The notes under the pieces: generated by a model
What the model saw: the letters and a program-made list of their open reading frames with translations, nothing else
Told to the model about the DNA's origin: nothing
The model's database searches: none
Program-made: the position numbers and the translations under genes
Assembly (NCBI GenBank): GCA_051650125.1
Contig: JBOFIK010000052.1
Span: 1-64,000, forward strand
Reading direction: 5' to 3'
DNA from: Sarcina sp.
Lineage (GTDB): Bacteria; Bacillota; Clostridia; Clostridiales; Clostridiaceae
Length of the DNA stretch: 64,000 nucleotides
Shown here: in pieces, positions 1-62,017 of the stretch
Position numbering within the stretch: position 1 is the first letter of the stretch
Layout: the number at the start of each line of letters is the position of its first letter

Positions 1-66
1 TTCGTCTCCCCGTTGATGTAACTTTAGTTTAACCAAACAACAAAATATAATAAAGAACTTAACAAA

Positions 67-100
67 AAAATGGCGTCCGAAAACACCATTTTTATTATTT
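67..100. terminator. Imperfect hairpin plus T/A tracts downstream of the aquaporin gene (bidirectional-type terminator)
   Basis: aaatggcg-tccgaaaa-caccattt, 7/8-bp stem, flanked by an A-run and a T-run. Confidence 0.35.
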
Positions 101-166
101 AACTATTTTTGAAATACCCATACTTGAGTAAGAACCTAATTTAATGCAATCTCTATTTTTTCTATT

Positions 167-832
167 TTATTTTTCGCTATCTAATATAAACATACTAACA
201 ATAGATGAAAGTATTGCACCAGCTATCGGTGCTAATATAAATGCCCATAATTGTGTTAATGCTACACCACCAGCAAATAGTGCTGGTCCAAGACTTCTAG
301 CTGGATTTACTGAAGTTCCTGTTACAGGAATTCCAACAAGGTGGACTGCTGTAAGTGCAAAACCAATAACACCCCCAGCAAATGCTGCATTTCCTTTCTT
401 ACCTGTTACAACAAGTATTACTAATACAAATATAAATGTTAATGTAAATTCTGTTAATAATACTCCCCACCATGTAAAGTCTCCAAAACTATTTTGTCCA
501 AAATTATCTAATGGCATTTTTCCTGCCTTTAAAATTAAATATAATACCCCTGATGCTGCTATTGCACCTAGACATTGTGAAATTATGTAATATATAAGTT
601 CTTTGAAACTCATTCTTCTATTTATAAACATTGCAACTGATACTGCTGGATTTATGTGACATCCTGAAATAGTCCCTATACTATAACACATTCCCATAAG
701 TGCTAGTCCAAATGCAACTGCTATTCCAAGTATCCCTACTCCATTAATTCCTCCACCTAGAACTGCAGTAGCTGGTCCTATAAATACAAGTACAAAAGTT
801 CCTATAAATTCTGCCATAGCTTTTTTTGCCAT
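167..832 (-). CDS. MIP-family aquaporin (AqpZ-like water channel), 221 aa
   Basis: Two NPA boxes (HINPAVS and NPARS), six predicted TM segments. GGAGG RBS 8 nt upstream of the ATG. Length fits AqpZ rather than GlpF. Confidence 0.85.
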   Translation of the reverse strand: MAKKAMAEFIGTFVLVFIGPATAVLGGGINGVGILGIAVAFGLALMGMCYSIGTISGCHINPAVSVAMFINRRMSFKELIYYIISQCLGAIAASGVLYLILKAGKMPLDNFGQNSFGDFTWWGVLLTEFTLTFIFVLVILVVTGKKGNAAFAGGVIGFALTAVHLVGIPVTGTSVNPARSLGPALFAGGVALTQLWAFILAPIAGAILSSIVSMFILDSEK

Positions 833-46600: not shown

Positions 46601-47110
46601 TTATTTGTTTTTTAATGACAATCTACAATATATAACTAGTGAAACTCCTATTATAATTAAGGGTACAAACATTGTTGTCCCTGAAAAACCACTTCCTATA
46701 TTTTTAGATGCTAGTAATATTTGAACTTGCATATTTGCAAACAATAAAGCTAACTCAAGATTCATTACTTTTACAAATGTAGACTCCATATTATATTGCT
46801 TTTCTCTATTTCCCTCATGTAGAGGCACAATATAATTTCCCATGCCAGGATATTTACTGATTAATGTAAAAAACAAATACATTCCAATTGCAATTCCTAG
46901 TAATAAAAACAATGTATGTTTTGAACCATAAGCATCAACTTGTCCATATATATTAAAATGTGTTGGAATTCTATCTCCTGCCTCACTCCAAATTTTAAAA
47001 GTAAATCCACTAAGAAATATAATTATAAGTACCGTAACTGAATCTAATATTAAATTAATTTTTCTGTGCTTTTCACTAGGTTTCCATTTAGCCATTTTAC
47101 ACGCCCCCAA
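46601..47110 (-). CDS. DUF1648 (SdpI/YfhL-like) membrane protein, paralog A
   Basis: Four TM. NREKQYNMESTFVKVMNLELALLFAN block shared with 48210-48704. Confidence 0.6.
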   Translation of the reverse strand: MGACKMAKWKPSEKHRKINLILDSVTVLIIIFLSGFTFKIWSEAGDRIPTHFNIYGQVDAYGSKHTLFLLLGIAIGMYLFFTLISKYPGMGNYIVPLHEGNREKQYNMESTFVKVMNLELALLFANMQVQILLASKNIGSGFSGTTMFVPLIIIGVSLVIYCRLSLKNK

Positions 47111-47195
47111 TTAAATATTAAATATCTTTTTTTATATTATACTCCCTAAATTCCATATTTCCCCTTAGTTAAGGAAGATTTAAGATTTGTCTTAT

Positions 47196-48035
47196 TTACT
47201 TCTCCCAATAGCTAGGTCTAGTAATTGAACTTGGTAACTTTGTTTTACTATCACCAATAGTAGCATTTATCTGTTGCTGAGTTATAAATAAAGCCTTTTC
47301 TAAGTTAGCACCTCTAATATTTGTATCTCTCATATCAGTAGCAATTAAGTTTGCACCAGTTAAATCAGTATTGCTTAAATTAGCTGCTATAAGTAGTGAA
47401 CAACTTAAATCTGCTCCCCTTAAATTTTCCTTACTTAGGTTTTTAGCAATATTATTTTTGCTTATCACTTTTTTATTTTTAACTTTTGACTTATTACTTA
47501 CTTCTATACTCGTAGCCTTTAATAAAACATTTATACTATCCCTATATTTTTCTATATTAATAGATAATATCTCTTTAGGACTTAAAATTGTAAGCTTATT
47601 TAACTTATCTATCATCTCTTCAATTTTTACTTTTTGCTCTTTTCTACTCTCAAAATCATAAGCCATATTTAAATACCAAAGCATTTCATGAAGTTGTCTT
47701 GCTATTAAAAACACCTCAAACATTTCATCCTTTAAAGATTTTTTCTCATTCCATCTCACACCATTATATATTTGACTTGCCACCTTTTGACCAGCACCAA
47801 AACAATCATAAGAAGTACATCCCTTAAGTCCTTTTTCTCTAAGATTACTATGTACCTTACAAGTAAAATCCTCATTCAAATTACTACAAGGGTCCCCTGC
47901 TACCTTATCCTTTGGAAATCCATCCATCTTTGAAAAATATAGTGCCACGCAGCAAAATCCAAAACAATTTTTGCAATCTATCTTCAACTCTTTTTCTATA
48001 TCAAAACTTTCATTATAATTCTTTTTCACTTTCAT
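47196..48035 (-). CDS. Fusion protein: N-terminal YkgJ-type Cys-cluster (UPF0153) domain + C-terminal pentapeptide repeats
   Basis: CKNCFGFCC ... C ... C ... C cluster, then LRGADLSCSLLIAANLSNTDLTGANLIATDMRDTNIRGANL. Confidence 0.65.
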   Translation of the reverse strand: MKVKKNYNESFDIEKELKIDCKNCFGFCCVALYFSKMDGFPKDKVAGDPCSNLNEDFTCKVHSNLREKGLKGCTSYDCFGAGQKVASQIYNGVRWNEKKSLKDEMFEVFLIARQLHEMLWYLNMAYDFESRKEQKVKIEEMIDKLNKLTILSPKEILSINIEKYRDSINVLLKATSIEVSNKSKVKNKKVISKNNIAKNLSKENLRGADLSCSLLIAANLSNTDLTGANLIATDMRDTNIRGANLEKALFITQQQINATIGDSKTKLPSSITRPSYWEK

Positions 48036-48209
48036 AATACATCTCCATTTTCAAATACTTTATATTCAATCTAAAAAGTATTATACCATTTAACATTTTT
48101 TATTCAATTACTTTAAACAAAAATAAATATCTATAAAATTTCAAAAAAATAAGATTGCTTAATTAAAACAATCTTATCTTCTACATTTAAAATTTTTATG
48201 TATTTAATT

Positions 48210-48704
48210 TTATTTTTCTTTAAATATAAGTACTACATAAATAATCGTTGTAATAAGTATTGCTACAACAGGTACAAGAATAATTATATCAGTTATGTTT
48301 GCTAGTCCACTCCATGCAGACTTCATAAGCTTAATTTGAATTGATGCAAATAAAAGTATTGCCTCAAGGTTTAAAACCTTTATAAATGTACTTGTTAAGT
48401 TATACTGTCTATCCCTATTACTACTTGTAATTCTTACTAAATGCCTGTCCATATTAAGATATGTACTCATTAAAAATAATATTATGTACACTACAATAGA
48501 TATTCCTACTATAATAAATAATGAATCTTTTGATAGATAATTATCAATGCTTCCAACCTCATCAAAATGTACTGGAATCATAGCTGGGGCTGTCACCCAA
48601 TATTTATATGTCATAACACCTAAGAAAATAATCCAAAGTGCTGCAACTACATCTACTACTATATTTATTTGCTTATATATTCCGCTTGCTATCCATTTTT
48701 CCAC
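48210..48704 (-). CDS. DUF1648 (SdpI-like) membrane protein, paralog B
   Basis: NRDRQYNLTSTFIKVLNLEAILLFAS block, paralogous to 46601-47110. Confidence 0.6.
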   Translation of the reverse strand: MEKWIASGIYKQINIVVDVVAALWIIFLGVMTYKYWVTAPAMIPVHFDEVGSIDNYLSKDSLFIIVGISIVVYIILFLMSTYLNMDRHLVRITSSNRDRQYNLTSTFIKVLNLEAILLFASIQIKLMKSAWSGLANITDIIILVPVVAILITTIIYVVLIFKEK

Positions 48705-48856: not shown

Positions 48857-49558
48857 CTACTTCATATCTTCAACCACTTCTTTTATTTCTTTATTCTCAC
48901 GATATAAAATAGGATTTACTTTGTCAAAATAAGTATATATTCTAGCCTCCATCTTATCATCCGTAAAATCATATGATGAATTATCTCTTACAATATACTC
49001 TTTGCCATTTATTTTAATTATTTCATCTGTAGGTTCACTGCCCCCAAGCATAACAACGAAAAAAAACATTGGCATAACGGCTATTGCTATTGTATATACA
49101 CCTACCGCTATACCTTTAATAATTACTTTACCAAATCCTCTTTTTGAATTATTCTCATCTCTCTTTGTAATTAAAATATTAAATAATGCTATCACTATTA
49201 AAAGTGCATATGTTATAACTCCCAATATAGCCATTATAGGTTCTAAATTACTTACTAATCTATACCCCTTAGGTATCATCATTGCTGTATATGTTATAAA
49301 AGCTAAAAATGTTAAAGAATATATAGCTATCACCCATCTAAAAAATTTATTAATTCTCTTCTCAATTATTAAATTACAAATACACATTTCTAAAAGTAAT
49401 AAACTACCTCCAATATAATATGGAAGCCCAATCATAATGGGAGCACTATCTATCATATCATTATCTGAAGTTACCACTACAACTAACAAAGAAATTACAA
49501 GTGTACAAATTTCTATAACGTTAATAAAACTTAATTTGTTGTTTCTATAAAAAGTCAT
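48857..49558 (-). CDS. Hypothetical polytopic membrane protein with a C-terminal soluble tail
   Basis: Six TM, 233 aa. Confidence 0.45.
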   Translation of the reverse strand: MTFYRNNKLSFINVIEICTLVISLLVVVVTSDNDMIDSAPIMIGLPYYIGGSLLLLEMCICNLIIEKRINKFFRWVIAIYSLTFLAFITYTAMMIPKGYRLVSNLEPIMAILGVITYALLIVIALFNILITKRDENNSKRGFGKVIIKGIAVGVYTIAIAVMPMFFFVVMLGGSEPTDEIIKINGKEYIVRDNSSYDFTDDKMEARIYTYFDKVNPILYRENKEIKEVVEDMK

Positions 49559-49698: not shown

Positions 49699-50037
49699 TC
49701 ATATCAGCCTTAAATAATCATCTTCACCCTCACCATTCAAATTATAAATCGCTTTGTACTCTGCAAATGTAACTTCTTCATACTCCATTCTGACTTTTGC
49801 AGATATATATTTACGTTCATCATCATTCTCCATATGCCATGTATTTATTACATACGAAATACTATGAAATTCATATTTTATATTTTTAAAGACCATCCCT
49901 TTAAATAATTCATTAAAATCTTCTTCATCATTCTTCTTATATTCAGCTAAATAAAATTTTAAATCTCTCATTACTAAATCTTTTATATTGTACTCTTGTA
50001 TCCACTTTTCTAATTTAAACTCCATATTCTCATTCAC
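49699..50037 (-). CDS. Hypothetical small cytosolic protein (immunity-protein-like size and composition)
   Basis: 112 aa, acidic. Confidence 0.4.
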   Translation of the reverse strand: MNENMEFKLEKWIQEYNIKDLVMRDLKFYLAEYKKNDEEDFNELFKGMVFKNIKYEFHSISYVINTWHMENDDERKYISAKVRMEYEEVTFAEYKAIYNLNGEGEDDYLRLI

Positions 50038-50100
50038 CCCTTAAGTTCTTAGATTATAAACTTTTTAATCTATAATATATTCACTATTACCAAAGCATTA

Positions 50101-50568
50101 TCATCTTGTAACTTTATGTTTCCTAGCAGTACTATGAAGATTAGAAATTGCATATTCACCTTTTTCAAGCTTTAACTCAAATAATTTTTCCATTTCAAGC
50201 TCTGGATATCCAACACATTGAATTAATTCACCAGCAGTAACAACTAATAACTTTCCACTAGAAATATTTAACCATTTAAAATTATCTAAATCTTTATCAC
50301 TCATCTGTAACTTAAATTTATGGTCACCATATGGCAATAAATATATTACCATTTTTCCCTGCTCACAAAAATCTCTTATCGGTTTTGACTCCCTTTCTCT
50401 CACTACATCCCAATTTTCTTTTGGAAAATCAAATTTCAATTCCGACTTTCCTTGTACATCTAACAAAACATCCATAGAATACAATAACTCACTATTTAAT
50501 TCACTTAAATAAATTTCATCAGTTAAAACTAATCCATCATCCCCATCACATTCTACTATAAAGTCCAC
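50101..50568 (-). CDS. Hypothetical cytosolic protein (155 aa)
   Basis: ORF, acidic. Confidence 0.4.
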   Translation of the reverse strand: MDFIVECDGDDGLVLTDEIYLSELNSELLYSMDVLLDVQGKSELKFDFPKENWDVVRERESKPIRDFCEQGKMVIYLLPYGDHKFKLQMSDKDLDNFKWLNISSGKLLVVTAGELIQCVGYPELEMEKLFELKLEKGEYAISNLHSTARKHKVTR

Positions 50569-50629: not shown

Positions 50630-50740
50630 TTAAAATATTTCTTTGACTTCAATATCTCTCACTTTAAATAATACAATTTTAAAAATCCATAAAATAAGTG
50701 ATATTGGTACTATTAAAGATAAATCTGTATAGGGACTCAT
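50630..50740 (-). pseudogene. Truncated N-terminal fragment (36 codons) of the paralogous membrane-protein family
   Basis: MSPYTDLSLIVPISLILWIFKIVLFKVRDIEVKEIF versus MGGDVSLIIPISFALWIFKVVAFKVRDIEVKEM in 51423-51866. DNA identity extends over about 90 bp. Confidence 0.6.
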
Positions 50741-50837: not shown

Positions 50838-51386
50838 TTATTTCAAATCAATAATTTTTATTTTCTTATCATATTTTTCTCTCGTAACGTAAAAGAAAAA
50901 ACATATAATACTTATTATATCCATTCCTAACTTTACCAAAACATATGGAAATGTAAGAGCAATTCCAACATATACAATCGTTGGCATAAACTGCTCTAAA
51001 TGAATTAAGCTATATATTATAGCTAATGCATGAACCAGCCACCATACTTTTTTTTCGCCATTCCTTATTAGCAAAATAATATTTATAAAGGTAATCTTTA
51101 TAAAGAATAGCCCTTGCCTAATGATTAACCCCCATAATAATATTCCAACAATAGTTTTTCTATAACTATCAATATAAAAGATTTCACTAAAAAGCTCCTT
51201 CATTATGAATAGAATTATTATTTCAAAAACAACATATTCTTCTAATTTTTTTAGTATTTTTAATAAGAAATTTTTTTTCATGTTCTCATTTTCTAATTTC
51301 TTCGATTTAAACAGTACAATTTTCACAATTGAAAGTATTAGCATAATCAACACTATTAATGGAACATCCTGTAACTCACCAAACAT
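50838..51386 (-). CDS. Small polytopic membrane protein, paralog 1 of a 3-member family
   Basis: Shared C-terminal block NGEKKVWWLVHALAII. Four to five TM. Confidence 0.6.
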   Translation of the reverse strand: MFGELQDVPLIVLIMLILSIVKIVLFKSKKLENENMKKNFLLKILKKLEEYVVFEIIILFIMKELFSEIFYIDSYRKTIVGILLWGLIIRQGLFFIKITFINIILLIRNGEKKVWWLVHALAIIYSLIHLEQFMPTIVYVGIALTFPYVLVKLGMDIISIICFFFYVTREKYDKKIKIIDLK

Positions 51387-51422: not shown

Positions 51423-51866
51423 TCAAAATATTTCTTTTTTAATCTGTACTAAATTCACTATTAACATAACAATTATATATGGATAACAAAACATCATAGT
51501 GCAAAATACCACAAATGGCAATACAATGTATGGTAAAATAATGCATAAAATCATCAATACTATCCATATAGAATTAACTAACCACCATTTTTTCTTTTCA
51601 CCTTTTTCAATTAATAAAATTAAATTCCTTGCTATTAATTTCAGTATATTGAAAATATTAATTCCTATTAAAATAAGGAGCATAATTCGAGTTATATTGT
51701 TAATAAAAGAATCTTCCATTATCAGCATTACCGAAACTACTAAAAGTATTAAATTTATAAAACGACTCATCTCTTTGACTTCAATATCCCTCACTTTAAA
51801 TGCTACGACTTTAAAAATCCATAAAGCAAATGATATTGGTATTATTAAAGATACATCTCCGCCCAT
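51423..51866 (-). CDS. Small polytopic membrane protein, paralog 2
   Basis: EKGEKKKWWLVNSIWIV block. Confidence 0.6.
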   Translation of the reverse strand: MGGDVSLIIPISFALWIFKVVAFKVRDIEVKEMSRFINLILLVVSVMLIMEDSFINNITRIMLLILIGINIFNILKLIARNLILLIEKGEKKKWWLVNSIWIVLMILCIILPYIVLPFVVFCTMMFCYPYIIVMLIVNLVQIKKEIF

Positions 51867-52107
51867 TTATACTCACTCCTTTATATATCAAGTGTATTAG
51901 ACCACCTAACTCTCTCTTTAAATTATCTTTACTCCTTTTATAATGACAAGCTCCTTCTTTTCCACTTATTCCCACTTTATACTTTTTGATTCTAAAAGTA
52001 AATTTAATCAACTTCTTCTCTCTACTTCTCACTTTCTTTAATTAATTTTTGAACTTAATTAAAGAAAAAACTATGCACAAATTAAATGCATAGTTTCCCT
52101 GTTATTA

Positions 52108-52162
52108 TTTTAAACGAATGGATTATAGAATCTTCCACCATTCACATATATTAAGTAGCCTG
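52108..52162. repeat. Left 55-bp direct repeat: decayed duplicate of the ecfT 3' end (with an adjacent terminator-like hairpin at 52066-52096)
   Basis: ttttaaacgaatggattatagaatcttccaccattcacatatattaagtagcctg is identical to 56814-56867. Weaker homology continues to about 52210, with a 54-bp deletion relative to ecfT. Confidence 0.85.
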
Positions 52163-52317
52163 CAAACTTCTTCCCACTATACCAAGTACGTTTTTTCTTT
52201 AGTTCCTTGCTTTCTACACTTTTATTCCCCTATATTTGCCTAATACCTTAAAAATACTTATGAGAGAAGATTACTTCTTGAACTTACTACTATCCTCAAA
52301 GTATTATTGCCTTCCCA

Positions 52318-52821
52318 TTATACTAAGAATTTTTTAATTTTAAATACATATATAATATAAATATTCATTACTAAACTTCCAAGAGTATATATATACATGG
52401 ATCCTGACCCAAAAATAATAATACATGGTAGTAAAATTGTAGGTGCAATAAAACTGAGTATTATAGGTACTACATGAATTGCCCACCATACTTTCTTTTT
52501 TCCTTGTTTCACAAGTAAAATAAAGTTTTTATAAATAATTTTCATAAAAAATAAAAGCTTAATAAATATTAAAACCCATATTACTATTCCTGCAATATTT
52601 TTTATATAGTTATCAATAAAAAGATTTGATATAAAATAATCTAGCATTATATACAAAATTATTATTTCTACAATAATATATTCCTTTAATATTTTCAAAA
52701 CAGGATATTTTTCTTCTTCTTCCTCTTCTAATCCTTGTAATTTAAATAATATAATTTTAATAATGCTTAAAATAAATGCTATTGGTACCACTATTGGAAT
52801 ACTTTCTAATTCTCCATTCAT
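52318..52821 (-). CDS. Small polytopic membrane protein, paralog 3 (inside the DR-bounded island)
   Basis: KQGKKKVWWAIHVVPII block. Glu-rich loop. Confidence 0.6.
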   Translation of the reverse strand: MNGELESIPIVVPIAFILSIIKIILFKLQGLEEEEEEKYPVLKILKEYIIVEIIILYIMLDYFISNLFIDNYIKNIAGIVIWVLIFIKLLFFMKIIYKNFILLVKQGKKKVWWAIHVVPIILSFIAPTILLPCIIIFGSGSMYIYTLGSLVMNIYIIYVFKIKKFLV

Positions 52822-52967
52822 TTGTATTTTCTACCTTTCCTTTCTATATATATAAGTTGTACGAATGAATCTACATTACACATTCATTGTATTGTCTACA
52901 ATGAATGTGTAATTCTTAAATATAAAAATGTAGATTCTATAATACAACATATATAGTATGAGTAAAT

Positions 52968-55900
52968 TTATTCATTTTTCTCAAATGTAATACTAGTAAA
53001 AAAGTCATTAAACTTTTCATAATACGAATTTATAGAATGCGCCACAGAAAATTTATCTATTCCTGAAATCATCCACTTATTTCTCCCTAATAAATGTGAT
53101 TTAAGTCCAAATTGATTTATATGATCTTCATTCATTTTGTAATTATAAACTTTCTTACTTTTCTGTCCATGATTATCATATATATTAGTCATTGGAGTGA
53201 AACCTGGTGATGCAAATGTTGTTATTTTATGAATTTGACTTTTACTTTCTTTAAAAGTTTCAAGATACATACCTGCAACAACAAGTTTTAATGGTGTAGG
53301 AATTTGGTTATCTATATAATACTTTAACCCCTCTGAGCTAGTTGGTGTTAAATTTATTTCTGGGTTCAATAAAGACCCTCCAATTTTTTGCGCTAGCCAC
53401 CCACCTAATGAATGTCCTGCAATATAAATATTAGTAGCTCCTGTATTACTTTCTGAATTCAAAACTTTATTCATAAATTTATACGCCGCATATACTTGTT
53501 TGGAATTATTACCCAACAAAATCGCTCCACCATCAGTGAATAGCCAATCATTAAAACCTTCTGCCGAGAATTTTTCTCCACTTCCCTCAAATGCTATAAT
53601 AATATTCTCTCCATTTTTTAGAGCTATAGCTCCAAATCCTGAATCAAAAAAACCTTCTATTATTGTCGAATCATTACTCTCTATGACTTCCCAATTTTTT
53701 AACAAATCAAATTTCTTCCCTAAATTAAGTTCACTAACTTCTTTTCCTATTTTACTATCTGTCACTTTATAAGAAAGATTCGCCGCCTGCATAAAGATTT
53801 TATCTTGTTTCACAAAGTCACCACTATTAATATTAAACTCATACTTATTTTCATCATCTTTATCTGGTATTCCATCTCCATCCATATCTCCACTACCTGC
53901 TTCACCATGGATATCATCAGTAATATCTCCAATTTCCTCTCCAGTTTTTACATGATAATATTTCCCACCAGTTTCGTTTGCTATTTTTTCTAATAATGCT
54001 TTATCATATTTTGTTCCTAATCCTATTGTATATATTTTTATATTGTCATTTTTAGCTTGTTCTAGTGAACTATCATGGAATGTTCCTTCGCCATCAGTTA
54101 ATAGAATTATCTTTTTATTTCTATCTTTACTATTTTTCAGTTGTTGTATTGCACTATCAACTCCTGCTGATATATTAGTGCCACCACTATTAATTCCAAG
54201 TCTATTAACATTATCCAATAAAGCTTTTTTATCAGCTGTTAATGCTTGATAAACACTAGATGAACTTGAAAAACCAACTAATGCCATTTTATCTTCATTC
54301 TCTTTTTTATTTATAAAGTGTTCTGCTAATTTAACTCTGTACTTATTTCTATCATTACTAGACATACTTCCAGATGTATCTATAACAAATGCTAAGTCCA
54401 ATTTACCTTTTTCAGATGGGTGTTTAATTTCATTCTCCCAATACTTATCCCACTCATCTTTATCAATAATTAAGAATTGGTCATTTACAGAGTATTTGTT
54501 ATCTTCTTTACTTTCTATTCCATTCTCAAAATTAACTGTTATAATTCCTTTAGTAGACTTATCCTGTCCTTTTACTTCAACTAAAGTATTTAGCTCTTTA
54601 TCTAATTTATATAAAGTCGGATTTTTTTTATCATCTAGCTTAAGTTTACTATAATCAAATTTAAAACTAATATCCTTTGATGCTTTAGGTATCTTAACTA
54701 AATAAGGATTACCTAAATATCCTGGTGTTTCTTTCGATGTCATAACATGTGTATTTTTCATATTTACAATCGCTATATTAGCTATATCTTTACCAATAAA
54801 CTTTCCATTAATTTCAATTGATATATTTTCATCTAGGATATTAGCTGATGGTTTATGTGTATATTTTAAAAGTTCATCACCATCTAATGTTCCATTATCA
54901 TCAGTGTCTTTTTTATTTGGATTTAATTTTAGTTCTATTTCTTTTCCATCTAAAATCCCATCATCATCCGTATCTTTTTTATTTGGATTTGTCTTATATT
55001 TTTCTACTTCTTCCTTATCATTTAATCCATCAAAATCTGTATCTGCCTCTAAAGGATTTGTTTCTAACTTTTGCTCTTGTTTTACTGTTAATCCATCCTT
55101 ATCTTTATCCTCATCTCCATCTAAAACTCCATTATCATCACTATCTGGCTTTAAAGGATTTGTATCTGATATATAAACTTCAAAACAATCATCTAATCCA
55201 TCATTATCTGTATCAGCTTTTAAAGGATCTGTTTCATACATTAAAACTTCCTCTCCATCTAAAAGACCATCACCATCCGTGTCTTCTTTTAACGGATCTG
55301 TTCCAAGCTCTAGTTCTTCTTCATCACTTAAAGTATCATTATCTGTATCTTTAAATTCACTTACATGAACTTTTTTAGATTTACCCACTTTATTTCCATT
55401 AGCATCAAATGAAATAATTTGATAGTAATATTTTTTTGACAACTCATCAGCTTCTGCATCTAAATACATATTACTTGCAATATCTTTTTGGTACTCTGTT
55501 AGATTATTACTATCATTCCCTTTCATTATTGTATATTTTAAACTCTCATTTTTATCCCATTCTAAAGAAACAATATTCTTTCGTCTTTCAGCTTTTAAAT
55601 TTATTATTTCAAGCCCTTCATTAATTTCTGGTTCAACTCCTAATAAAATATTTCCATCATATAAAACTAATATTTTATCCCAGTTCATATAATCCTTTGC
55701 ATCTTTATTAAATGAATAATCATTTTCTTGATTATAAACCGGCCAATCTTTCTTGTTAACTCTACTATGAATCTCAAGTTCATTTCCTGCTGTTAATTTT
55801 TCACTGACATTCATTTTTAAAGATAAATATCTATCAGCATCTTCAAGTTCTTCAACCTTTACAATCTCTGATGTTATTTTTTCTTTTCCGATATTCGCCC

Positions 55901-56639
55901 AATCTATTACTATTTCTTCATTTGTCTCATTTCCATCTGAATCCCCAGTATAATAATACCTTACTTCTAGCTTTGATAAATCTAAGTCTGTATTACCTGA
56001 ATTTAAAATTTTAAACCACGGGTATATACTTGTTATATCTTTATCTAGGTATTTATTATACATTTTTGCATCTACTTTTATGATACTTTCCTCTTTTATT
56101 TCTGTTGGTAAAACTCCATGTATTAATTGCCCTTTATAATCAACAGTAACATCATTTGCATATGAATAATTCTTTTCTTGATTATAATTTTTATTATCTT
56201 TATTCTGTAATCTAATATTCAATTCAACTTCTTCATCTTTTTTTAATTTATTTAGCCCTTCATTAAATTTTATATTTATTTTACTATTTGCTTTTTCATA
56301 ATTTTTATCTAATTTTTCTATTTGTACATCTACTTTTGATTGGTCAACAGAACACCAATCCTTTACTATTTCTTCTTTTTCAATTCCTTGATTATCATAC
56401 CAATAACTTAATGCTAAATCATTTAAATTTAGTGCTTCTTCATTAATATTTTTAATCTTAATTTTAAAGGATATTGTGTTACTTTCAACTTCCTTTATAA
56501 CATCTTCCTTTGTTATTTCTACACTTTTTATAGTTTCAGCTTGTACAATCTTTCCTATTGAAAATCCTTGGAACATTTGTAGCATAAAAGAAGCTAATAT
56601 AAATATAGATATCCTTTTTTCTTTGTTTTTTATTTTCAT
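52968..56639 (-). CDS. 1223-aa secreted multidomain protein: signal peptide, 2x CBM3-like modules, FN3-like, thrombospondin-type-3 Ca-binding repeats, VWA (MIDAS), C-terminal class-3-lipase-like alpha/beta hydrolase
   Basis: CBM3 blocks RYYYTGDS ... KKDWPVYNQENDYSF ... NWDKILVLYDGNILLGVEP. TSP3 DxDxDGxxDxxE repeats (about 8). VWA DTSGSM ... GGTN ... LLTDG. Nucleophile elbow GHSLGG near the C-terminus. Confidence 0.75.
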   Translation of the reverse strand: MKIKNKEKRISIFILASFMLQMFQGFSIGKIVQAETIKSVEITKEDVIKEVESNTISFKIKIKNINEEALNLNDLALSYWYDNQGIEKEEIVKDWCSVDQSKVDVQIEKLDKNYEKANSKINIKFNEGLNKLKKDEEVELNIRLQNKDNKNYNQEKNYSYANDVTVDYKGQLIHGVLPTEIKEESIIKVDAKMYNKYLDKDITSIYPWFKILNSGNTDLDLSKLEVRYYYTGDSDGNETNEEIVIDWANIGKEKITSEIVKVEELEDADRYLSLKMNVSEKLTAGNELEIHSRVNKKDWPVYNQENDYSFNKDAKDYMNWDKILVLYDGNILLGVEPEINEGLEIINLKAERRKNIVSLEWDKNESLKYTIMKGNDSNNLTEYQKDIASNMYLDAEADELSKKYYYQIISFDANGNKVGKSKKVHVSEFKDTDNDTLSDEEELELGTDPLKEDTDGDGLLDGEEVLMYETDPLKADTDNDGLDDCFEVYISDTNPLKPDSDDNGVLDGDEDKDKDGLTVKQEQKLETNPLEADTDFDGLNDKEEVEKYKTNPNKKDTDDDGILDGKEIELKLNPNKKDTDDNGTLDGDELLKYTHKPSANILDENISIEINGKFIGKDIANIAIVNMKNTHVMTSKETPGYLGNPYLVKIPKASKDISFKFDYSKLKLDDKKNPTLYKLDKELNTLVEVKGQDKSTKGIITVNFENGIESKEDNKYSVNDQFLIIDKDEWDKYWENEIKHPSEKGKLDLAFVIDTSGSMSSNDRNKYRVKLAEHFINKKENEDKMALVGFSSSSSVYQALTADKKALLDNVNRLGINSGGTNISAGVDSAIQQLKNSKDRNKKIILLTDGEGTFHDSSLEQAKNDNIKIYTIGLGTKYDKALLEKIANETGGKYYHVKTGEEIGDITDDIHGEAGSGDMDGDGIPDKDDENKYEFNINSGDFVKQDKIFMQAANLSYKVTDSKIGKEVSELNLGKKFDLLKNWEVIESNDSTIIEGFFDSGFGAIALKNGENIIIAFEGSGEKFSAEGFNDWLFTDGGAILLGNNSKQVYAAYKFMNKVLNSESNTGATNIYIAGHSLGGWLAQKIGGSLLNPEINLTPTSSEGLKYYIDNQIPTPLKLVVAGMYLETFKESKSQIHKITTFASPGFTPMTNIYDNHGQKSKKVYNYKMNEDHINQFGLKSHLLGRNKWMISGIDKFSVAHSINSYYEKFNDFFTSITFEKNE

Positions 56640-56756
56640 CCTTATCGCCTCGACATATTTTACCTTAAAAGTTAAAATTTGTAAATTATTTAAAAATAAC
56701 CAACTAAAATCACTGGTAATATTATCAACACTTTAAAATGATTAATTTTCTATAAA

Positions 56757-56790
56757 AAAAAAGCTATACACTTTGTAAGTGCATAGCTTT
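56757..56790. terminator. Bidirectional terminator after ecfT / large gene boundary
   Basis: aaaaaaaa gctatacac-tttgtaa-gtgcatagc ttttt. Confidence 0.65.
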
Positions 56791-56813
56791 TTATGTCGAT
56801 TGTTTTTTTTAAT

Positions 56814-56867
56814 TTTAAACGAATGGATTATAGAATCTTCCACCATTCACATATATTAAGTAGCCTG
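56814..56867. repeat. Right 55-bp direct repeat (authentic ecfT 3' end)
   Basis: Identical to 52108-52162. Confidence 0.85.
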
Positions 56868-57642
56868 ATAATATTACAAGACAAAGTCCAAATATCATAA
56901 CTGCATAGTCACTCTTTGTAAACTTCTTTCCACTATACCAAGTACGTTTTTCTTTACTTCCAAATGCTCTTATCTCCATAGCACAGCTTATTTTATCTAT
57001 CTTTTCTAGACTAGAAAAGATAAGTGGCATTATAATTACTGACGCATTTTTAACTCTAGTTATTGGACTCGCTTTTTTTGACATATCTATTCCTCTTGCT
57101 TGTTGTGCAAAGGCTATGTCATGATATTCTCTTTGAATATCTGGTACATATCTAAGTGCTATTGCTACTGAATAAGCAACTTTATAACTTACACCTATTT
57201 TATTTAATGATGCTGCAAATTCACTTGGATTAGTTGCAACCATAAATATAAGTGCCATTGGTGTTATAAGTAGATATTTTAGAACAAAATTAAGTTGATA
57301 GAATAATTGCTCTGATGTTACTTGATAATAATTTGTTATCTTAAATAATACTGTTTTTGAACCATATATCTCACAACCTTGGTATGGTGATATAAGATAT
57401 ATCGCAAGTGTATTTATTACAAGGAATATTATTATAAAGTAAAATACAAATGATATTTCCTTAAATTCAACTTTTGAAACTTTAAATATGATAAAACTTA
57501 AAATAAGAAGTCCTACTAAAAGTCTAGTATCATAACTTATCATAGATGCTATAACATAAGCTAATAAGAATAGTATCTTTGCTGCTCCTGTAAGCTTATG
57601 AACAAATGAATTCTTGTTTGAATATTCAAGCATAGTTTTCAT
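56815..57642 (-). CDS. ecfT: ECF transporter transmembrane (T) component EcfT
   Basis: Five to six TM. Conserved ARG-like motifs (ALRYVPDIQREY ... ARG). Stop-start overlap with the upstream ATPase gene. Confidence 0.75.
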   Translation of the reverse strand: MKTMLEYSNKNSFVHKLTGAAKILFLLAYVIASMISYDTRLLVGLLILSFIIFKVSKVEFKEISFVFYFIIIFLVINTLAIYLISPYQGCEIYGSKTVLFKITNYYQVTSEQLFYQLNFVLKYLLITPMALIFMVATNPSEFAASLNKIGVSYKVAYSVAIALRYVPDIQREYHDIAFAQQARGIDMSKKASPITRVKNASVIIMPLIFSSLEKIDKISCAMEIRAFGSKEKRTWYSGKKFTKSDYAVMIFGLCLVILSGYLIYVNGGRFYNPFV

Positions 57643-59346
57643 TTATCTTTCCCTCCTGTCAACTTCTATAAACTTGTTAACTAAATCTCTTGGCTTTTCA
57701 AAACCTAGTTTAACTGCAAGTTCATATAATGAAGTTTCTTTAAGATTAGCTCTTTTTATAACACTACTATCAGTTAAAATATTAGATGCTATATCCTGTG
57801 CTATCTTTTGCCCATCTCCTAGAACTACTGCTCTGTCAGTATATTCAAGCATTAAATGCATATCATGAGTAACCATTATTATAGTAACTCCTTTTTTATT
57901 AAGCTCTACAAGGAACTCCATAATTTCTGTATAGTGTTTAAAATCTTGCCCTGCTGTTGGCTCATCAAGAATTATAACTTTAGGATTTAAAACTAAGATA
58001 GATGCTATTGTCACCCTCTTCTTCTGACCATAACTAAGTGCTGATATAGGCCAGTTTCTAAAAGGATATAATCCACATATTTTAAGTGTTTCTATAACTC
58101 TTTCTTTAGTTTCTTCTGCACTAACACCTCTAGCTTTAAGCCCTAGCCCTACTTCTTCCATAATCATAGGCTTTGAAATCATCTGATTAGGATTTTGCAG
58201 AACTATACCAATATTTTCTGCTCTCTCTTTTATAGTATCTTTTATCATATCTTTACCTTCAAAAAGGACTTGTCCTTTTGTAGGTTTATAGAATCCACAT
58301 ACAAGCTTTGAAATTGTAGATTTACCTGCACCATTTCTTCCAACTATACTAAGTATTTCTCCCTTTTCAACTTTAAATGAAACATCTTTTAAAATTTGCT
58401 TACCTTTTTTATCATAAGAGAAATCTACATTTTTAAATTCTAGAATAGCTTCACTTTCCTTTGTCATAGCAATCTCTTCTACATCACTACTCCAAGTTTT
58501 AAGCTTGTCCTTATACTCATCAAGCATTATAGTATCAATACTAGCTGACTTCATCTCTTGTGTAATTTTAATATCTGCATATTTTAAAGCTGTAACATAA
58601 AGTGGTTCTCTTATTCCATTTTCAATTAAGATATTACTTGCTAAAAGTTTGTCTGGGCTTACATCTGCAAGTATTTCGCCCTCATGCATAACAATAATTC
58701 TATCTATATCTCTATGTAGAACATCTTCAAGTCTGTGCTCTATAATTACAATAGTCTTATTATTTTCTTTATGAATTTTATCTATAAGTTCAATTGATAT
58801 CTTCCCAGTTGCAGGGTCTAAACTAGCAAGTGGCTCATCAAATAAAAGTATATTAACATCACTAACCATAACTCCTGCAAGAGTAACTCTTTGCTTTTGA
58901 CCACCAGATAGACTATGTGGTGATGCATCAAGGTAAGTATCTACACCTACTATTTTTGAAACTATATCGACTCTTCTTTTCATCTCTGCTTGATCTATAC
59001 AATCATTCTCTAACTTAAAAGCTATATCCTCAGCTACTGTAAGTCCTATAAACTGACCATCTGGGTCTTGTAGAACAGTCCCAACTTCATTAGATAAACC
59101 TGCAATATCACACTCTCTAGTTTCTTTTCCATTAACCTTTAGACTACCTGTAATCTCACCCTCATATAAAAAAGGTGCTAGTCCATTTATGCAGTTAGTA
59201 ATTGTACTCTTACCACAACCAGAAGGCCCTACTATTAAAATTTTCTCACCTTCATATATTGTAAGATTTATATTATTTAGAGTTGGACACTCTTGTGCTC
59301 TATATTGAAAACTGAAATCCTTAAACTCAATGACTGTTTTTTTCAA
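57643..59346 (-). CDS. Fused duplicated ECF ATPase (EcfA-EcfA', two ABC cassettes)
   Basis: Two Walker A (GPSGCGKST, GRNGAGKST), two LSGGQ (LSGGQKQRV, LSYGQKKRV), two Walker B. Confidence 0.85.
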   Translation of the reverse strand: MKKTVIEFKDFSFQYRAQECPTLNNINLTIYEGEKILIVGPSGCGKSTITNCINGLAPFLYEGEITGSLKVNGKETRECDIAGLSNEVGTVLQDPDGQFIGLTVAEDIAFKLENDCIDQAEMKRRVDIVSKIVGVDTYLDASPHSLSGGQKQRVTLAGVMVSDVNILLFDEPLASLDPATGKISIELIDKIHKENNKTIVIIEHRLEDVLHRDIDRIIVMHEGEILADVSPDKLLASNILIENGIREPLYVTALKYADIKITQEMKSASIDTIMLDEYKDKLKTWSSDVEEIAMTKESEAILEFKNVDFSYDKKGKQILKDVSFKVEKGEILSIVGRNGAGKSTISKLVCGFYKPTKGQVLFEGKDMIKDTIKERAENIGIVLQNPNQMISKPMIMEEVGLGLKARGVSAEETKERVIETLKICGLYPFRNWPISALSYGQKKRVTIASILVLNPKVIILDEPTAGQDFKHYTEIMEFLVELNKKGVTIIMVTHDMHLMLEYTDRAVVLGDGQKIAQDIASNILTDSSVIKRANLKETSLYELAVKLGFEKPRDLVNKFIEVDRRER

Positions 59347-59430: not shown

Positions 59431-59985
59431 TTAAAGATATTCTTTTTTTAGACTACCTTTTCTAATTCTTGTTTTTGAATATGAGTAAATAAGTATTGTA
59501 CCTAAAACTCCACAAGTAATAGTATTTGCTACACCAGCAACTGCTGCTTGTATATAAACTTTTTCGATCGGCTCTTTGTATAGAACAAAATCTAAAGTTG
59601 GAGCAACAAATCCCCAAGCAATAGCATTCGCAACTATTTGATATATGTTATATATAATCATTTGCTTTTTCTCAAAAATACCATCTGAAATTTTAATTCT
59701 TTTACTAGCAAAACCAATAATAAGTCCCATAACTGCTGATGCAATAATCCAACTAAACCATGGTGAACCATAAGTTAAGTCTTTTAGAGTATGTCCTAAA
59801 AATCCAATAGCAAAAGCTGTCTTAGGTCCATAAATAACTGCCATCAAAGCTAAGAATGCATAACATGTAGCAAATTCTGTATTAGGAATCCCTGTTGGAA
59901 TTGCTGCAAAACGACCAAGTATCATAAATACAGCAGCACCAATACCAATAGCAACTACTTTATTAATAGTTAATCCTTTTTTCAT
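59431..59985 (-). CDS. ECF transporter substrate-specific (S) component
   Basis: Six TM, 184 aa, first gene of the S / A-A' / T operon. Confidence 0.65.
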
Positions 59986-60148: not shown

Positions 60149-62017
60149 TTATTTAATTTTCTTTTTTAAAACTGATAATACTAACATACCAACAATTGAC
60201 CCTACTAGTAGTGCTACAAAGTAGCCTATTGGGTTTGCTATTACTGGTAAAACAAAAATTCCACCATGAGGTGCTCTAAGTGAACATTCAAATAACATTG
60301 ATAATGCACCTGCTGTTGTTGAGCCTACAACACATGCTGGAATTATTCTTAACGGATCTGCTGCTGCAAAAGGTATTGCTCCCTCTGTTATAAAAGCAAA
60401 TCCCATTATATAGTTTGTAATTCCTGATTTTCTTTCACTCTCTGTAAATCTATTTTTAAAGAATGTTGTGCAAAGTGCAATTGCAAGAGGAGGTACCATA
60501 CCACCAATCATAACTGCTGCCATAAATTCAAATTGTCCACTAGCAAGTGATGCTGTTCCAAAAACATATGCTGCTTTATTTATAGGCCCACCCATATCAA
60601 TCGCCATCATTCCCCCTAAAACTGCTCCAAGTAAAACTTTACTACTCTCTCCCATACTATTCAAGAAATTTGTGATTCCTGTATTAGCTGCTGCTACTGG
60701 AGGATTTACAAGGAATACTATAATAGCTCCTATTAATAATATACCAAGGAAAGGATATAATAATACAGGTTTTAAACCTTCTAAACTATTAGGTAAGAAA
60801 TTCAGTACTTTCTTTAATCCAAGCATTACGTAACCTGCTATAAACCCTGCAAGTAACGCCCCTAAGAAACCCGATCCCCCTATGTTAGCAAGCATACCCC
60901 CAACAAATCCGACAGCAAGACCTGGTCTATCTGCAATACTCATTGCAATATAACCTGCTAAAACTGGTAGCATAAATCCAAATGCTTGATCTCCCACAGT
61001 TTTTAGAAATGCTGCAAACTCTGTGTTACTTCCAAATGTAGCTGGATTAATACTATAATCATCAAATAAGAATGCTAAAGCTATTAATATTCCTCCACCA
61101 ATTACGAAAGGTAACATATGTGATACACCATTCATTAAGTGCTTATAAATTTGTCTTCCTATTGTCTCTTTTTCATCACTTATTTCCTCACTGCTACCTT
61201 CTGTATGGTGATAAAAATTAGCTTTTCCATCTCTAGCTTTATTTATTAACTCATCTGCTTTGTGTATTCCATTTGCAACCTTAGTTTGTATAACTTTTTT
61301 ACCATCAAATCTAGCCATATCAACTTTTTTATCAGCTGCTATAATTATGCACTCAGCCTCTTCTATCTCTTTTTTAGTTAAAACATTTTTTGCCCCACCA
61401 GAACCATTTGTTTCTACTTTTATTGTAACACCCATTTCTTTAGCTTTTTTCTCTAAACTTTCCGCTGCCATAAATGTGTGAGCTATGCCTGTTGGGCAAG
61501 CTGTAACAGCTAAAACTTTATAGCCACTATCATTATTTTCTTCTTCTTCTTTATTTAATTTTTCATTTTCTTTAGCATCAATTAACTGTAAAAATTTTTC
61601 AACAGAATTTGCATTTAATAATGATTTTTTAAATTCCTCATCCATAAGCAGTGTTGCTAATCTTGCTAAAACTTCTAAATGTGTATTATTCTCACCATCT
61701 GGTGCTGCTATCATAAAGAATAAATGAGCCGGCTCTCCATCTAGGGAATCATAATCAACCCCCTCTCTTATAATCATTGAACTAAGACTTGCCTTTTCAA
61801 CCGCTTTTGTTTTAGCATGAGGAATTGCAATACCGCCCCCTATACCCGTTGTACTTAAAACTTCTCTTTCTAAAATAGCATTCTTATACTCTTCTTTGTC
61901 ATTTAAATTTCCTGACTTATCCATTAAATTAATTAAAGTATTTATTGCTTCTTCTTTAGTTGTAATTTCCGGATTTATTGCAATACTATTTTTTGATAGT
62001 AAGTCTATAATTCTCAT
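60149..62017 (-). CDS. fruA: PTS fructose-specific EIIABC
   Basis: N-terminal IIA(Fru/Mtl type), IIB(Fru) with CPTGIAHT, and a C-terminal IIC. Confidence 0.85.
   Translation of the reverse strand: MRIIDLLSKNSIAINPEITTKEEAINTLINLMDKSGNLNDKEEYKNAILEREVLSTTGIGGGIAIPHAKTKAVEKASLSSMIIREGVDYDSLDGEPAHLFFMIAAPDGENNTHLEVLARLATLLMDEEFKKSLLNANSVEKFLQLIDAKENEKLNKEEEENNDSGYKVLAVTACPTGIAHTFMAAESLEKKAKEMGVTIKVETNGSGGAKNVLTKKEIEEAECIIIAADKKVDMARFDGKKVIQTKVANGIHKADELINKARDGKANFYHHTEGSSEEISDEKETIGRQIYKHLMNGVSHMLPFVIGGGILIALAFLFDDYSINPATFGSNTEFAAFLKTVGDQAFGFMLPVLAGYIAMSIADRPGLAVGFVGGMLANIGGSGFLGALLAGFIAGYVMLGLKKVLNFLPNSLEGLKPVLLYPFLGILLIGAIIVFLVNPPVAAANTGITNFLNSMGESSKVLLGAVLGGMMAIDMGGPINKAAYVFGTASLASGQFEFMAAVMIGGMVPPLAIALCTTFFKNRFTESERKSGITNYIMGFAFITEGAIPFAAADPLRIIPACVVGSTTAGALSMLFECSLRAPHGGIFVLPVIANPIGYFVALLVGSIVGMLVLSVLKKKIK

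Follow-up and report, generated by a model that had tools for sequence, protein, structure and literature searches.

Antibacterial lipase effectors are well documented for secretion systems of type VI (T6SS; the Tle enzymes) and of type VII (T7SS; TslA). We know of no Sec-secreted lipase effector that carries carbohydrate- and ligand-binding targeting modules and is paired with a polytopic membrane immunity protein, and to our knowledge no N-terminal module matching a CBM3/TSP3/VWA set is known from polymorphic toxin systems. The locus described here is a candidate for such a system. It lies in a 64,000-nucleotide (nt) stretch of a Sarcina sp. contig (hereafter the window) and consists of an intact gene for a secreted protein of 1223 amino acids (aa) and a family of small membrane-protein genes, all placed behind ecfT of an energy-coupling factor (ECF) transporter operon. 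The closest described enzymes are Tle1-4 with their Tli partners in the T6SS and TslA with TilA in the T7SS. In these systems, an alpha/beta-hydrolase with a GxSxG nucleophile acts as a phospholipase A against bacterial membranes, a paired protein exposed on the outer face of the membrane neutralizes it, and the immunity genes lie in variable multi-copy arrays, which are features that the present locus would share if the reading favored here is right (PMC10730906).

We cautiously favor the reading that the locus encodes a Sec-secreted polymorphic lipase effector and that the polytopic membrane proteins beside it are a new immunity family. The reading is based on a variable tip of the large protein, a neighboring gene that appears to vary with it, arrays of orphan genes, and a small gene that has outlived the large one; polymorphic toxin-immunity loci and TslA/TilA-type systems show this combination. 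That the genes belong to a horizontally exchanged, strain-variable island at the ecfT site is very probable.

The variability of the tip is seen in the comparison with P0001, the closest homologue of the 1223-aa protein (89% identity), which is encoded on the metagenomic contig L003. The two proteins are 93 to 99% identical over aa 35 to 913 but only 65% identical in the C-terminal lipase-like domain. The DNA identity to L003 is 97 to 100% over positions 56620 to 54071 (91 to 92% within the TSP3 repeats) and then falls progressively to 65 to 75% in the lipase domain. Synonymous divergence (dS) follows the same course, with values of 0.058 to 0.23 in the N-terminal regions (0.058 for codons 1 to 430 and 0.118 for codons 601 to 913) and of 0.79, above the core-genome value, in the lipase domain. 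The ratio of nonsynonymous to synonymous divergence (dN/dS) is 0.33 to 0.38 in the lipase domain and the genes of the transmembrane (TM) family, compared with 0.06 to 0.17 elsewhere. Between the window and L004, a metagenome-assembled genome (MAG) of an uncultured Clostridium whose EcfT is 95% identical, the dS of ecfAA' and ecfT is 0.34 to 0.41. The much lower value of 0.058 in the large gene supports horizontal exchange.

The gene that follows the lipase gene was always a member of the TM family, with 23 to 54% identity between haplotypes (TM167 of the window, TM162 of L003, TM162b of L085, and the gene of L002); TM167 and TM162 of L003 are 30% identical, and TM162b of L085 and TM162 of L003 are 54% identical. 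The proteins have about four to five helices by hydropathy and a conserved G-x-K-K-x-W loop; among 5.8 billion, only 7 cluster representatives belong to this family. Orphan cassettes were found in several haplotypes: TM147 and TM182 with a further fragment in the window, TM168 in L083, a lipase-domain fragment in L085, and fragments of Imm11 and Imm50 genes in L003 and L083. In the last two contigs, a window-type TM168 gene (81% identity to TM167) is kept further downstream as an orphan, after the truncated Imm11 and Imm50 genes. In the window, tblastn revealed no orphan lipase-domain fragments. In L085 (475 to 2074), the lipase gene is reduced to three short in-order fragments (aa 59 to 83, 762 to 783, and 1174 to 1223), but the TM gene of 162 aa behind it has stayed intact; downstream of the latter lie an isolated piece of a lipase domain (aa 1027 to 1055) and TM167/TM182-like fragments. 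The lipase-TM gene pair of L002 is found in an unrelated genomic context, and distant clades carry their own lipase domains beside other small TM proteins (104 to 105 aa in L001 and L079; 193 and 184 aa in L078). The sequence-only reading of the window had regarded the paralogous membrane proteins as possible immunity or partner proteins, an idea to which the divergence of the TM genes together with the lipase tip and the survival of the TM gene in L085 lend comparative support.

Two details of these loci can be added. The Imm fragments at L003:5081-5704 and L083:422-1045, which lie between two TM-family genes, cover positions 104 to 192 of the 194 of the Imm11 profile and 1 to 56 of the 118 of the Imm50 profile. 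Imm11 is among the families of heterogeneous polyimmunity loci, and Imm11 and Imm50 pair with nuclease-type toxins (Imm50 also with Ntox24) and not with lipases (Zhang et al. 2012, PMC3482391). In L001, two paralogous membrane proteins of 104 and 105 aa with 67% mutual identity (L001:9437-9751 and L001:13695-14012) flank P0003, a 58%-identical homologue, on both sides, which differs from the downstream-only order of the window.

According to the favored reading, the N-terminal part of the protein, with its two CBM3 domains, calcium-binding TSP3 repeats and VWA domain with a metal-ion-dependent adhesion site (MIDAS), would tether or target the protein to a polysaccharide or a cell-surface ligand, and the class-3-lipase-like domain (Ser1077-Asp1172-His1201) would attack membrane lipids. 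The downstream polytopic membrane protein would protect the producer. The lipase domain and the adjacent membrane protein would diverge together, and older membrane-protein genes would accumulate downstream as orphans. Both the antibacterial targeting and the immunity function of the TM proteins are proposals. A more specific form of this reading, in which some gut Clostridium/Sarcina lineages release a Sec-secreted "lipase bacteriocin", is offered more tentatively, as somewhat less likely than not. The protein would dock through CBM3/TSP3/VWA on a polysaccharide or surface receptor of neighboring cells and kill them with a polymorphic class-3 phospholipase tip; a hitherto undescribed family of multi-pass membrane proteins would make producers immune, and strains would exchange and stockpile these immunity genes, tip and immunity modules being replaced by recombination anchored in ecfT. 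The ABP toxin-protease-immunity systems (PMC13460014) were also considered and ruled out, as the locus encodes neither a serine protease nor a cytoplasmic immunity protein.

The assignment of the C-terminal domain as class-3-lipase-like is supported indirectly, by its relatives, its conserved residues and fold searches with a predicted model. A profile-free exhaustive search with the domain gave 143 homologues. The GHSLGG motif (aa 1075 to 1080) is invariant in 147 aligned sequences, with S1077 conserved in all 147, D1172 in 129 and H1201 in 104. Several relatives exceed the Pfam threshold for Lipase_3 (P0003 with 24.4, P0121 with 29.6 and P0032 with 38.3 bits; P0028 passes as well), and P0032 also matches the Mbeg1-like family with 49.4 bits. 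A Foldseek search with the model had been suggested by the sequence-only reading, together with a comparison with Tle enzymes. The fold search placed the domain in the class-3 lipase fold, with lipases of Rhizomucor, Yarrowia and Penicillium as the top matches (probability 1.0) and triacylglycerol lipases and feruloyl esterase A as structural neighbors; Tle structures were not among the top 50 to 60 matches, for which no Tle-specific hidden Markov model was run, and TslA was not among the best matches. A sequence search of the PDB with the domain returned only nucleophile-elbow matches with E values above 0.4. The domain would presumably hydrolyze lipids. The lipase assignment made from the sequence alone therefore holds with regard to the catalytic triad, the relatives and the fold, although on the protein itself the Lipase_3 profile stays below its threshold.

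For the remainder of the protein, Pfam bears out the CBM3, TSP3 and VWA assignments of the sequence-only reading, with CBM_3 matched twice, and a Sec-type signal peptide is present by inspection. The fn3 domain that had been proposed as well is not supported: apart from the edge of the TSP3 match, no family was found in aa 340 to 445 at E values of up to 1, and no fn3-type match appeared there. The Pfam scan of the protein revealed no LXG or LXG-like domain; a Sec-type signal peptide is present instead. NCBI names the protein "VWA domain-containing protein" (MGL4762886.1). The combination of domains had not been recognized there as a described one, which holds only in part. The TSP3-VWA-lipase core recurs in many Bacillota proteins that the databases name only "VWA domain-containing protein", but the CBM3-bearing form is rare (about 7 proteins), and we found no paper that describes a CBM3-TSP3-VWA-lipase protein. 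A metagenome scan with the 1223-aa protein yielded only distant TSP3-VWA relatives with 32 to 35% identity. The features of the locus and of the protein are collected in Table 1.

Table 1. Features of the ecfT-associated island in the window and domains of the 1223-aa protein
Feature	Position	Strand	Basis or remark
ECF transporter S component (riboflavin-type)	59431..59985	-	Pfam ECF-ribofla_trS, 1.3e-47
Fused EcfA-A' ATPase	57643..59346	-	Pfam ABC_tran (two matches) and DUF3744; 91% DNA identity to L004
Intact ecfT (T component), 275 aa	56815..57642	-	Pfam CbiQ, 2.7e-26, 93 bits; aa sequence 95% identical to EcfT of L004
Direct repeat copy B, 56 nt exact	56812..56867		Homology to copy A extends to ~56955
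termB, intrinsic terminator after ecfT, island-side junction	56758..56792	-	Common to L003; predicted -18.5 kcal/mol, z -6.9
1223-aa secreted multidomain protein	52968..56639	-	Intact open reading frame (ORF); Pfam, conserved residues, model and fold search
Signal peptide, Sec-type	aa 1-34		By inspection: basic n-region, hydrophobic core, VQA|E at 32-35; predicted cleavage after VQA34
Two CBM3 domains	aa ~40-175 and 190-335		Pfam CBM_3 (PF00942), 38.6 and 54.9 bits (threshold 22.4)
Segments without family match	aa 340-430 and 595-745		
TSP3 repeats	aa 430-590		Pfam TSP3_bac (PF18884), 98 bits; 5 stretches when aa 430-600 scanned alone
VWA domain	aa 748-908		Pfam (PF00092), 83.5-88.8 bits; MIDAS D754-x-S756-x-S758, T821, D849 intact by inspection
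TSP3-like linker	aa 918-931		
Class-3-lipase-like domain	aa 935-1223		S1077, D1172, H1201
Hypervariable C-terminal lipase-like domain, DNA	52971..53900	-	
Nested palindrome, 107 nt, between 1223-aa gene stop and TM167 start	52849..52955	.	-43 kcal/mol, z -7.8
TM167, 167-aa polytopic membrane protein, candidate immunity or partner protein	52318..52821	-	ORF, hydropathy, family comparison
Recombination scar: ~100 nt unassigned, truncated ecfT 3' fragment, termA and flank	51959..52310	.	Absent from L083 and L084
Copy A, decayed ecfT 3' fragment with 51-nt internal deletion	52102..52210	-	
termA (52065-52099) and flank, native ecfT terminator region	52031..52101	-	94% identical to L004 ecfT-downstream sequence
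TM147, TM167 paralogue (~30% identity), candidate orphan immunity gene	51423..51866	-	
TM182, TM167 paralogue (46% identity), candidate orphan immunity gene	50838..51386	-	
30-aa piece left of a fourth gene of the TM family, located between TM182 and the 155-aa ORF	50636..50725	-	77% to TM147 N-terminus
Two small soluble proteins (155 aa, 112 aa)	49699..50568	-	Variable island relative to L004 and L005
233-aa membrane protein, distal island edge	48857..49558	-	Homologue directly downstream of ecfT in L005

The ecfT site is known in four or more states, which can be called empty, scar-bearing, scar-free and decayed. A scan with EcfT in which each species was represented by one genome gave two close relatives, L004 and L005. 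In L004, the ECF operon aligns to positions 60160 to 56812 of the window at 91%, and the next 130 nt align to positions 52163 to 52031 at 94%, which corresponds to one repeat copy, the terminator termA and its flank without any insert; an unrelated 309-aa gene and then a DUF1648 gene follow the terminator region. L004 is therefore an empty site and shows that the operon natively ends in copy A, termA and the flank, whereas the sequence from termB onward is the foreign side. A second empty site is found in L005, a Sarcina MAG with an EcfT of 92% identity, where ecfT runs straight to a homologue of the 233-aa protein. The insertion of foreign DNA that the sequence-only reading had claimed is thus upheld by relatives that keep a single repeat copy or an ecfT without the segment. 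Its extent has to be revised: the 4.7-kb segment bounded by the repeats is absent from the relatives, but the variable region relative to L004 is larger, about 8 kb, from 56812 to about 48814.

The scar-free state is represented by L083, which overlaps L003 at 99.9%, and L084. In both, the sequence that lies upstream of the TM147 homologue adjoins the TM168 gene without interruption, and positions 1048 to 1589 of L083 correspond to 52850 to 52311 of the window and positions 1585 to 2728 to 51958 to 50819. The 350-nt scar (52310 to 51959) is therefore missing in that haplotype and is lineage-specific. Behind the 3' end of ecfT, L003 has a termB-type junction, and this 3' end is identical to that of L004 over about 88 aligned nt except for a stop-codon base (TAA versus TAG). 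Closely related lineages thus differ in whether they carry the island at this site. The decayed state is that of L085, in which an ecfT with a native-type terminator is followed by short in-order fragments of the 1223-aa gene, the intact TM gene, and orphan lipase-domain and TM fragments. Homologues of the 1223-aa protein also occur in unrelated genomic contexts (L001, L002, L078 and L079). In L078, the Sarcina homologue P0006 is inserted between murB/aminotransferase and rapZ/whiA housekeeping genes, and a PDDEXK_2 gene (L078:6866-7708) lies about 2.3 kb upstream of it. In L003 (131 to 221), the termB hairpin downstream of ecfT is interrupted by an insert of about 90 nt. This insert has 77% similarity to a terminator-like intergenic stretch at the start of the window (43 to 136), and it is perhaps a small element of intergenic DNA that is repeated or mobile.

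The duplication of the ecfT 3' end, with one of its copies decayed, was already recognized in the sequence-only reading and was confirmed by a repeat search, which gave 52102 to 52162 against 56807 to 56867 (61 nt, 97%) and 52161 to 52195 against 56917 to 56951 (35 nt, 94%). Copy B is the genuine 3' end of ecfT, comprising the last 53 nt of the gene and the stop context. In copy A, pairwise alignment shows that 51 nt of ecfT coding sequence are missing between the two homology blocks, at a GCA microhomology. The direct repeat, formerly given as 55 bp, reads as 56 nt exact (52107 to 52162 and 56812 to 56867) and is contained in a longer, imperfect duplication. The terminator hairpin was said to be duplicated too, which is not the case: termA, likewise predicted to be a strong intrinsic terminator (-14.9 kcal/mol), and termB differ in sequence, so that the duplication covers the coding 3' end only and each copy has its own terminator. 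The 51-nt core of the repeat occurs exactly twice in the 64-kb window, with no occurrence expected from shuffled sequences, and is therefore not a generic intergenic repeat, a possibility that had been raised. The palindrome of 107 nt upstream of TM167 occurs once in the window and in none of the fetched loci, and its edge is precisely where the homology to L083 starts. It might serve in processing or attenuation, or mark a junction of recombination.

Among the ORFs and Pfam domains of the region from 48.8 to 56.8 kb there was no transposase, integrase or recombinase, the repeat search showed no terminal inverted repeats at the ends of the island, and the imperfect duplicated gene fragment measures 110 to 190 nt. 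Taken together, these observations point to a recombination scar and not to a target-site duplication, as which it had initially been read; a fragment of the ecfT 3' end of about this length is what recombination of the homologous or the illegitimate kind would leave. The proximal 4.7 kb, comprising termB, the lipase gene and TM167, would have come in, or been exchanged, when DNA recombined at the ecfT 3' end. This could have happened if a circularized donor fragment carrying part of ecfT, termB, the lipase gene and TM167 underwent a single crossover with the 3' end of the chromosomal ecfT. Alternatively, homology-facilitated illegitimate recombination with its illegitimate junction at about 52210 would give the same product. 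The truncated ecfT fragment and the native terminator would be the leftovers of the event. We infer this pathway from the scar. Homology-facilitated illegitimate recombination and Campbell-type single-crossover integration are known routes to partial duplication of an anchor gene, and the likeness to the present site lies in one end within shared homology (the ecfT 3' end), another end that is illegitimate, and a direct duplication of part of the anchor gene.

Several observations weigh against the favored reading. The full protein reaches only 16.3 bits with Lipase_3 (PF01764) and the isolated domain 20.3 bits, compared with a Pfam threshold of 22; the model of the domain is moderate (predicted local distance difference test [pLDDT] score of 64), with the Asp/His region poorly modeled, and that of TM167 is unusable (pLDDT 53). 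The dN/dS values are below 1. All six full-length homologues and all fragments share one lipase-like fold, and among them no swap of unrelated C-terminal folds on the same N-terminal scaffold was seen, although such swaps are the feature by which polymorphic toxins are classically recognized. The immunity proteins of known lipase effectors are soluble periplasmic proteins or lipoproteins (Tli; TilA, PMC10730906) and not polytopic. With regard to the island, the equivalence of the L003 and L004 lineages depends on about 90 nt, and the scar arrangement is present in this one MAG contig only. In addition, CBM3 and VWA would equally suit an adhesin, a fiber-bound exoenzyme, or binding to a plant or host matrix, and in one locus inspected, that of Schinkia azotoformans (L090), the wider TSP3-VWA-lipase family has no membrane partner.

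Given this partnerless wider family, the TSP3-VWA-lipase protein may primarily be an exoenzyme or an adhesin. It would then be an ordinary secreted or surface protein, tethered by CBM3 and VWA to plant fiber, mucus or the cell's own polysaccharide and used for nutrition or colonization; the TM proteins would be unrelated or accessory (for anchoring or maturation), and the fast evolution of the lipase domain would be an adaptation to substrate or host. CBM_3 and VWA are typical adhesive or substrate-binding modules, the core is widespread in Bacillota without a TM partner, the structural neighbors are triacylglycerol lipases and feruloyl esterase A, and the single fold of all variants and the dN/dS values agree with this explanation as well. 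However, it fails to explain why each change of the lipase domain goes with a change of the TM gene next to it, why diverged TM paralogues build up in tandem, why a TM gene survives the destruction of the lipase gene, why Imm11/Imm50 fragments lie inside the island of L003 and L083, and why the gene pair moves jointly into unrelated loci. We therefore regard it as a serious but rather unlikely alternative to the Sec-secreted effector.

The arrangement at the repeats might also be an artefact of assembly. The window is part of a single MAG contig (NCBI "MAG: Sarcina sp.", proteins MGL4762882-88), in which the order of segments across the 56-nt exact repeat rests on the assembly, and 55 is a common maximum k-mer in de Bruijn assemblers, to which the length of the repeat is close. 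The contig might thus pass two times through a node of 56 nt that haplotypes of co-occurring strains have in common, or the 4.7-kb segment might truly be circular or tandem. A further assembly containing the scar was not found, and it is missing from both L083 and L084. Nevertheless, the two junctions (TM167 through about 100 nt to the truncated ecfT, and the flank of termA to the region upstream of TM147) occur in no other haplotype and so represent real molecules. Copy A, with its 51-nt deletion and extra mismatches, shows decay and not a collapsed repeat, reads of 100 to 150 nt easily span 56 nt, and even in a circular or tandem state the ecfT fragment would be physically joined to the island. 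An artefact is consequently very unlikely. A conventional mobile element (a transposon or an integrase island with attL/attR), whose target- or attachment-site duplications the repeats would be, is the least credible explanation: direct repeats do surround a segment missing from relatives, and site-specific islands often rebuild the 3' end of their target gene, but the stretch from ecfT to the DUF1648 gene contains no ORF for a transposase, integrase or recombinase, Pfam shows no recombinase domain in the island ORFs, the ends have no terminal inverted repeats, the duplication is imperfect and far longer than a target-site duplication, homologous modules elsewhere have other flanks without such repeats, and a scan of viral contigs found no relative of the lipase domain.

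The surroundings of the island are as follows. All genes of the locus are on the minus strand in the order S component, EcfA-A', EcfT, the 1223-aa protein, TM167, TM147, TM182, the 155- and 112-aa proteins, the 233-aa membrane protein and, beyond the latter, DUF1648. EcfT qualifies as a T component by its CbiQ match and by the genes of the S component and the double-ABC_tran A-A' protein upstream. The GC content of the island (24 to 31%) does not set it apart from its flanks (27 to 32%), and promoter-like sites are not enriched over shuffled sequences. The 155- and 112-aa proteins and the TM paralogues gave no Pfam or NCBIfam match, even at E values of up to 10. The 155-aa protein (50101 to 50568) belongs to a Clostridia-wide family of hypothetical proteins of about 167 aa without a Pfam model (35 cluster representatives), whose neighbors elsewhere are a Dus gene and the gene of a large leucine-rich-repeat protein; it is not claimed as an immunity gene, since this context (the Dus neighbor) is uninformative. 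Further downstream, at 46601 to 48704, two DUF1648 paralogues (46601 to 47110 and 48210 to 48704) flank a 279-aa protein with a pentapeptide-repeat C-terminus (47196 to 48035); only one DUF1648 gene of L004 matched this stretch. Plus-strand ORFs inside 52968 to 56639, such as a His/Leu-rich ORF of 168 aa at 54848 to 55354, are not genes but mirror the TSP3 repeat DNA on the antisense strand, and the direct-repeat families D1 to D8 of the window are TSP3 repeat units.

If the favored reading is true, the locus would represent a new delivery route and a new immunity-protein family in the competition among strictly anaerobic gut Firmicutes, and a role could be assigned to the widespread, uncharacterized TSP3-VWA-lipase proteins. 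If the exoenzyme or adhesin explanation is right, it is a routine variable surface-protein island. The site is also a clear natural illustration of how such modules turn over at a recombination hotspot: its four haplotypes record how they are gained, replaced and eroded, and the recombination scar fixes one junction to the base.

Compared with the class 3 lipases and DAD1-like phospholipases A1 (PF01764; Mbeg1-like/DUF2974, PF11187), the 1223-aa protein is only marginally similar by profile (16 to 20 bits versus 22); its domain has a long helical insertion (aa ~1095 to 1135) and is fused to an N-terminal extension of about 900 aa. The Bacillota TSP3-VWA-lipase proteins, such as P0028 of Schinkia azotoformans, have the same order of TSP3, VWA, short linker and lipase, with homologous lipase domains. 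In contrast, they have no CBM3 pair, some of them carry DUF11 or SLH, and one locus inspected had no adjacent small membrane gene. With the Sec-exported polymorphic toxins of Gram-positive bacteria, for example WapA/WapI of B. subtilis, the protein shares a signal peptide, a large conserved adhesive or repeat-containing N-terminal part and a divergent C-terminal enzymatic domain (PMC3482391). The small downstream gene that appears to co-vary with this domain, the orphan cassettes and the strain-variable locus with heterologous Imm fragments are also as in polymorphic toxin systems (PMC3482391). Unlike in those systems, there are no RHS/YD, filamentous haemagglutinin or LXG/WXG modules here, and no recognizable pre-toxin or processing peptidase domain; the tip has a single fold (lipase), and the candidate immunity protein is polytopic and belongs to a new, very small family. 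The differences from Tle and TslA are that export is predicted to be through Sec and not through T6SS or T7SS, that no LXG-like domain was detected, and that Tli and TilA, being soluble or lipoproteins, do not span the membrane several times. The locus would work like the polymorphic toxins and the Tle/TslA effectors but is a member of neither group, since it lacks a targeting domain for T6SS or T7SS and its toxin folds are not exchanged for unrelated ones.

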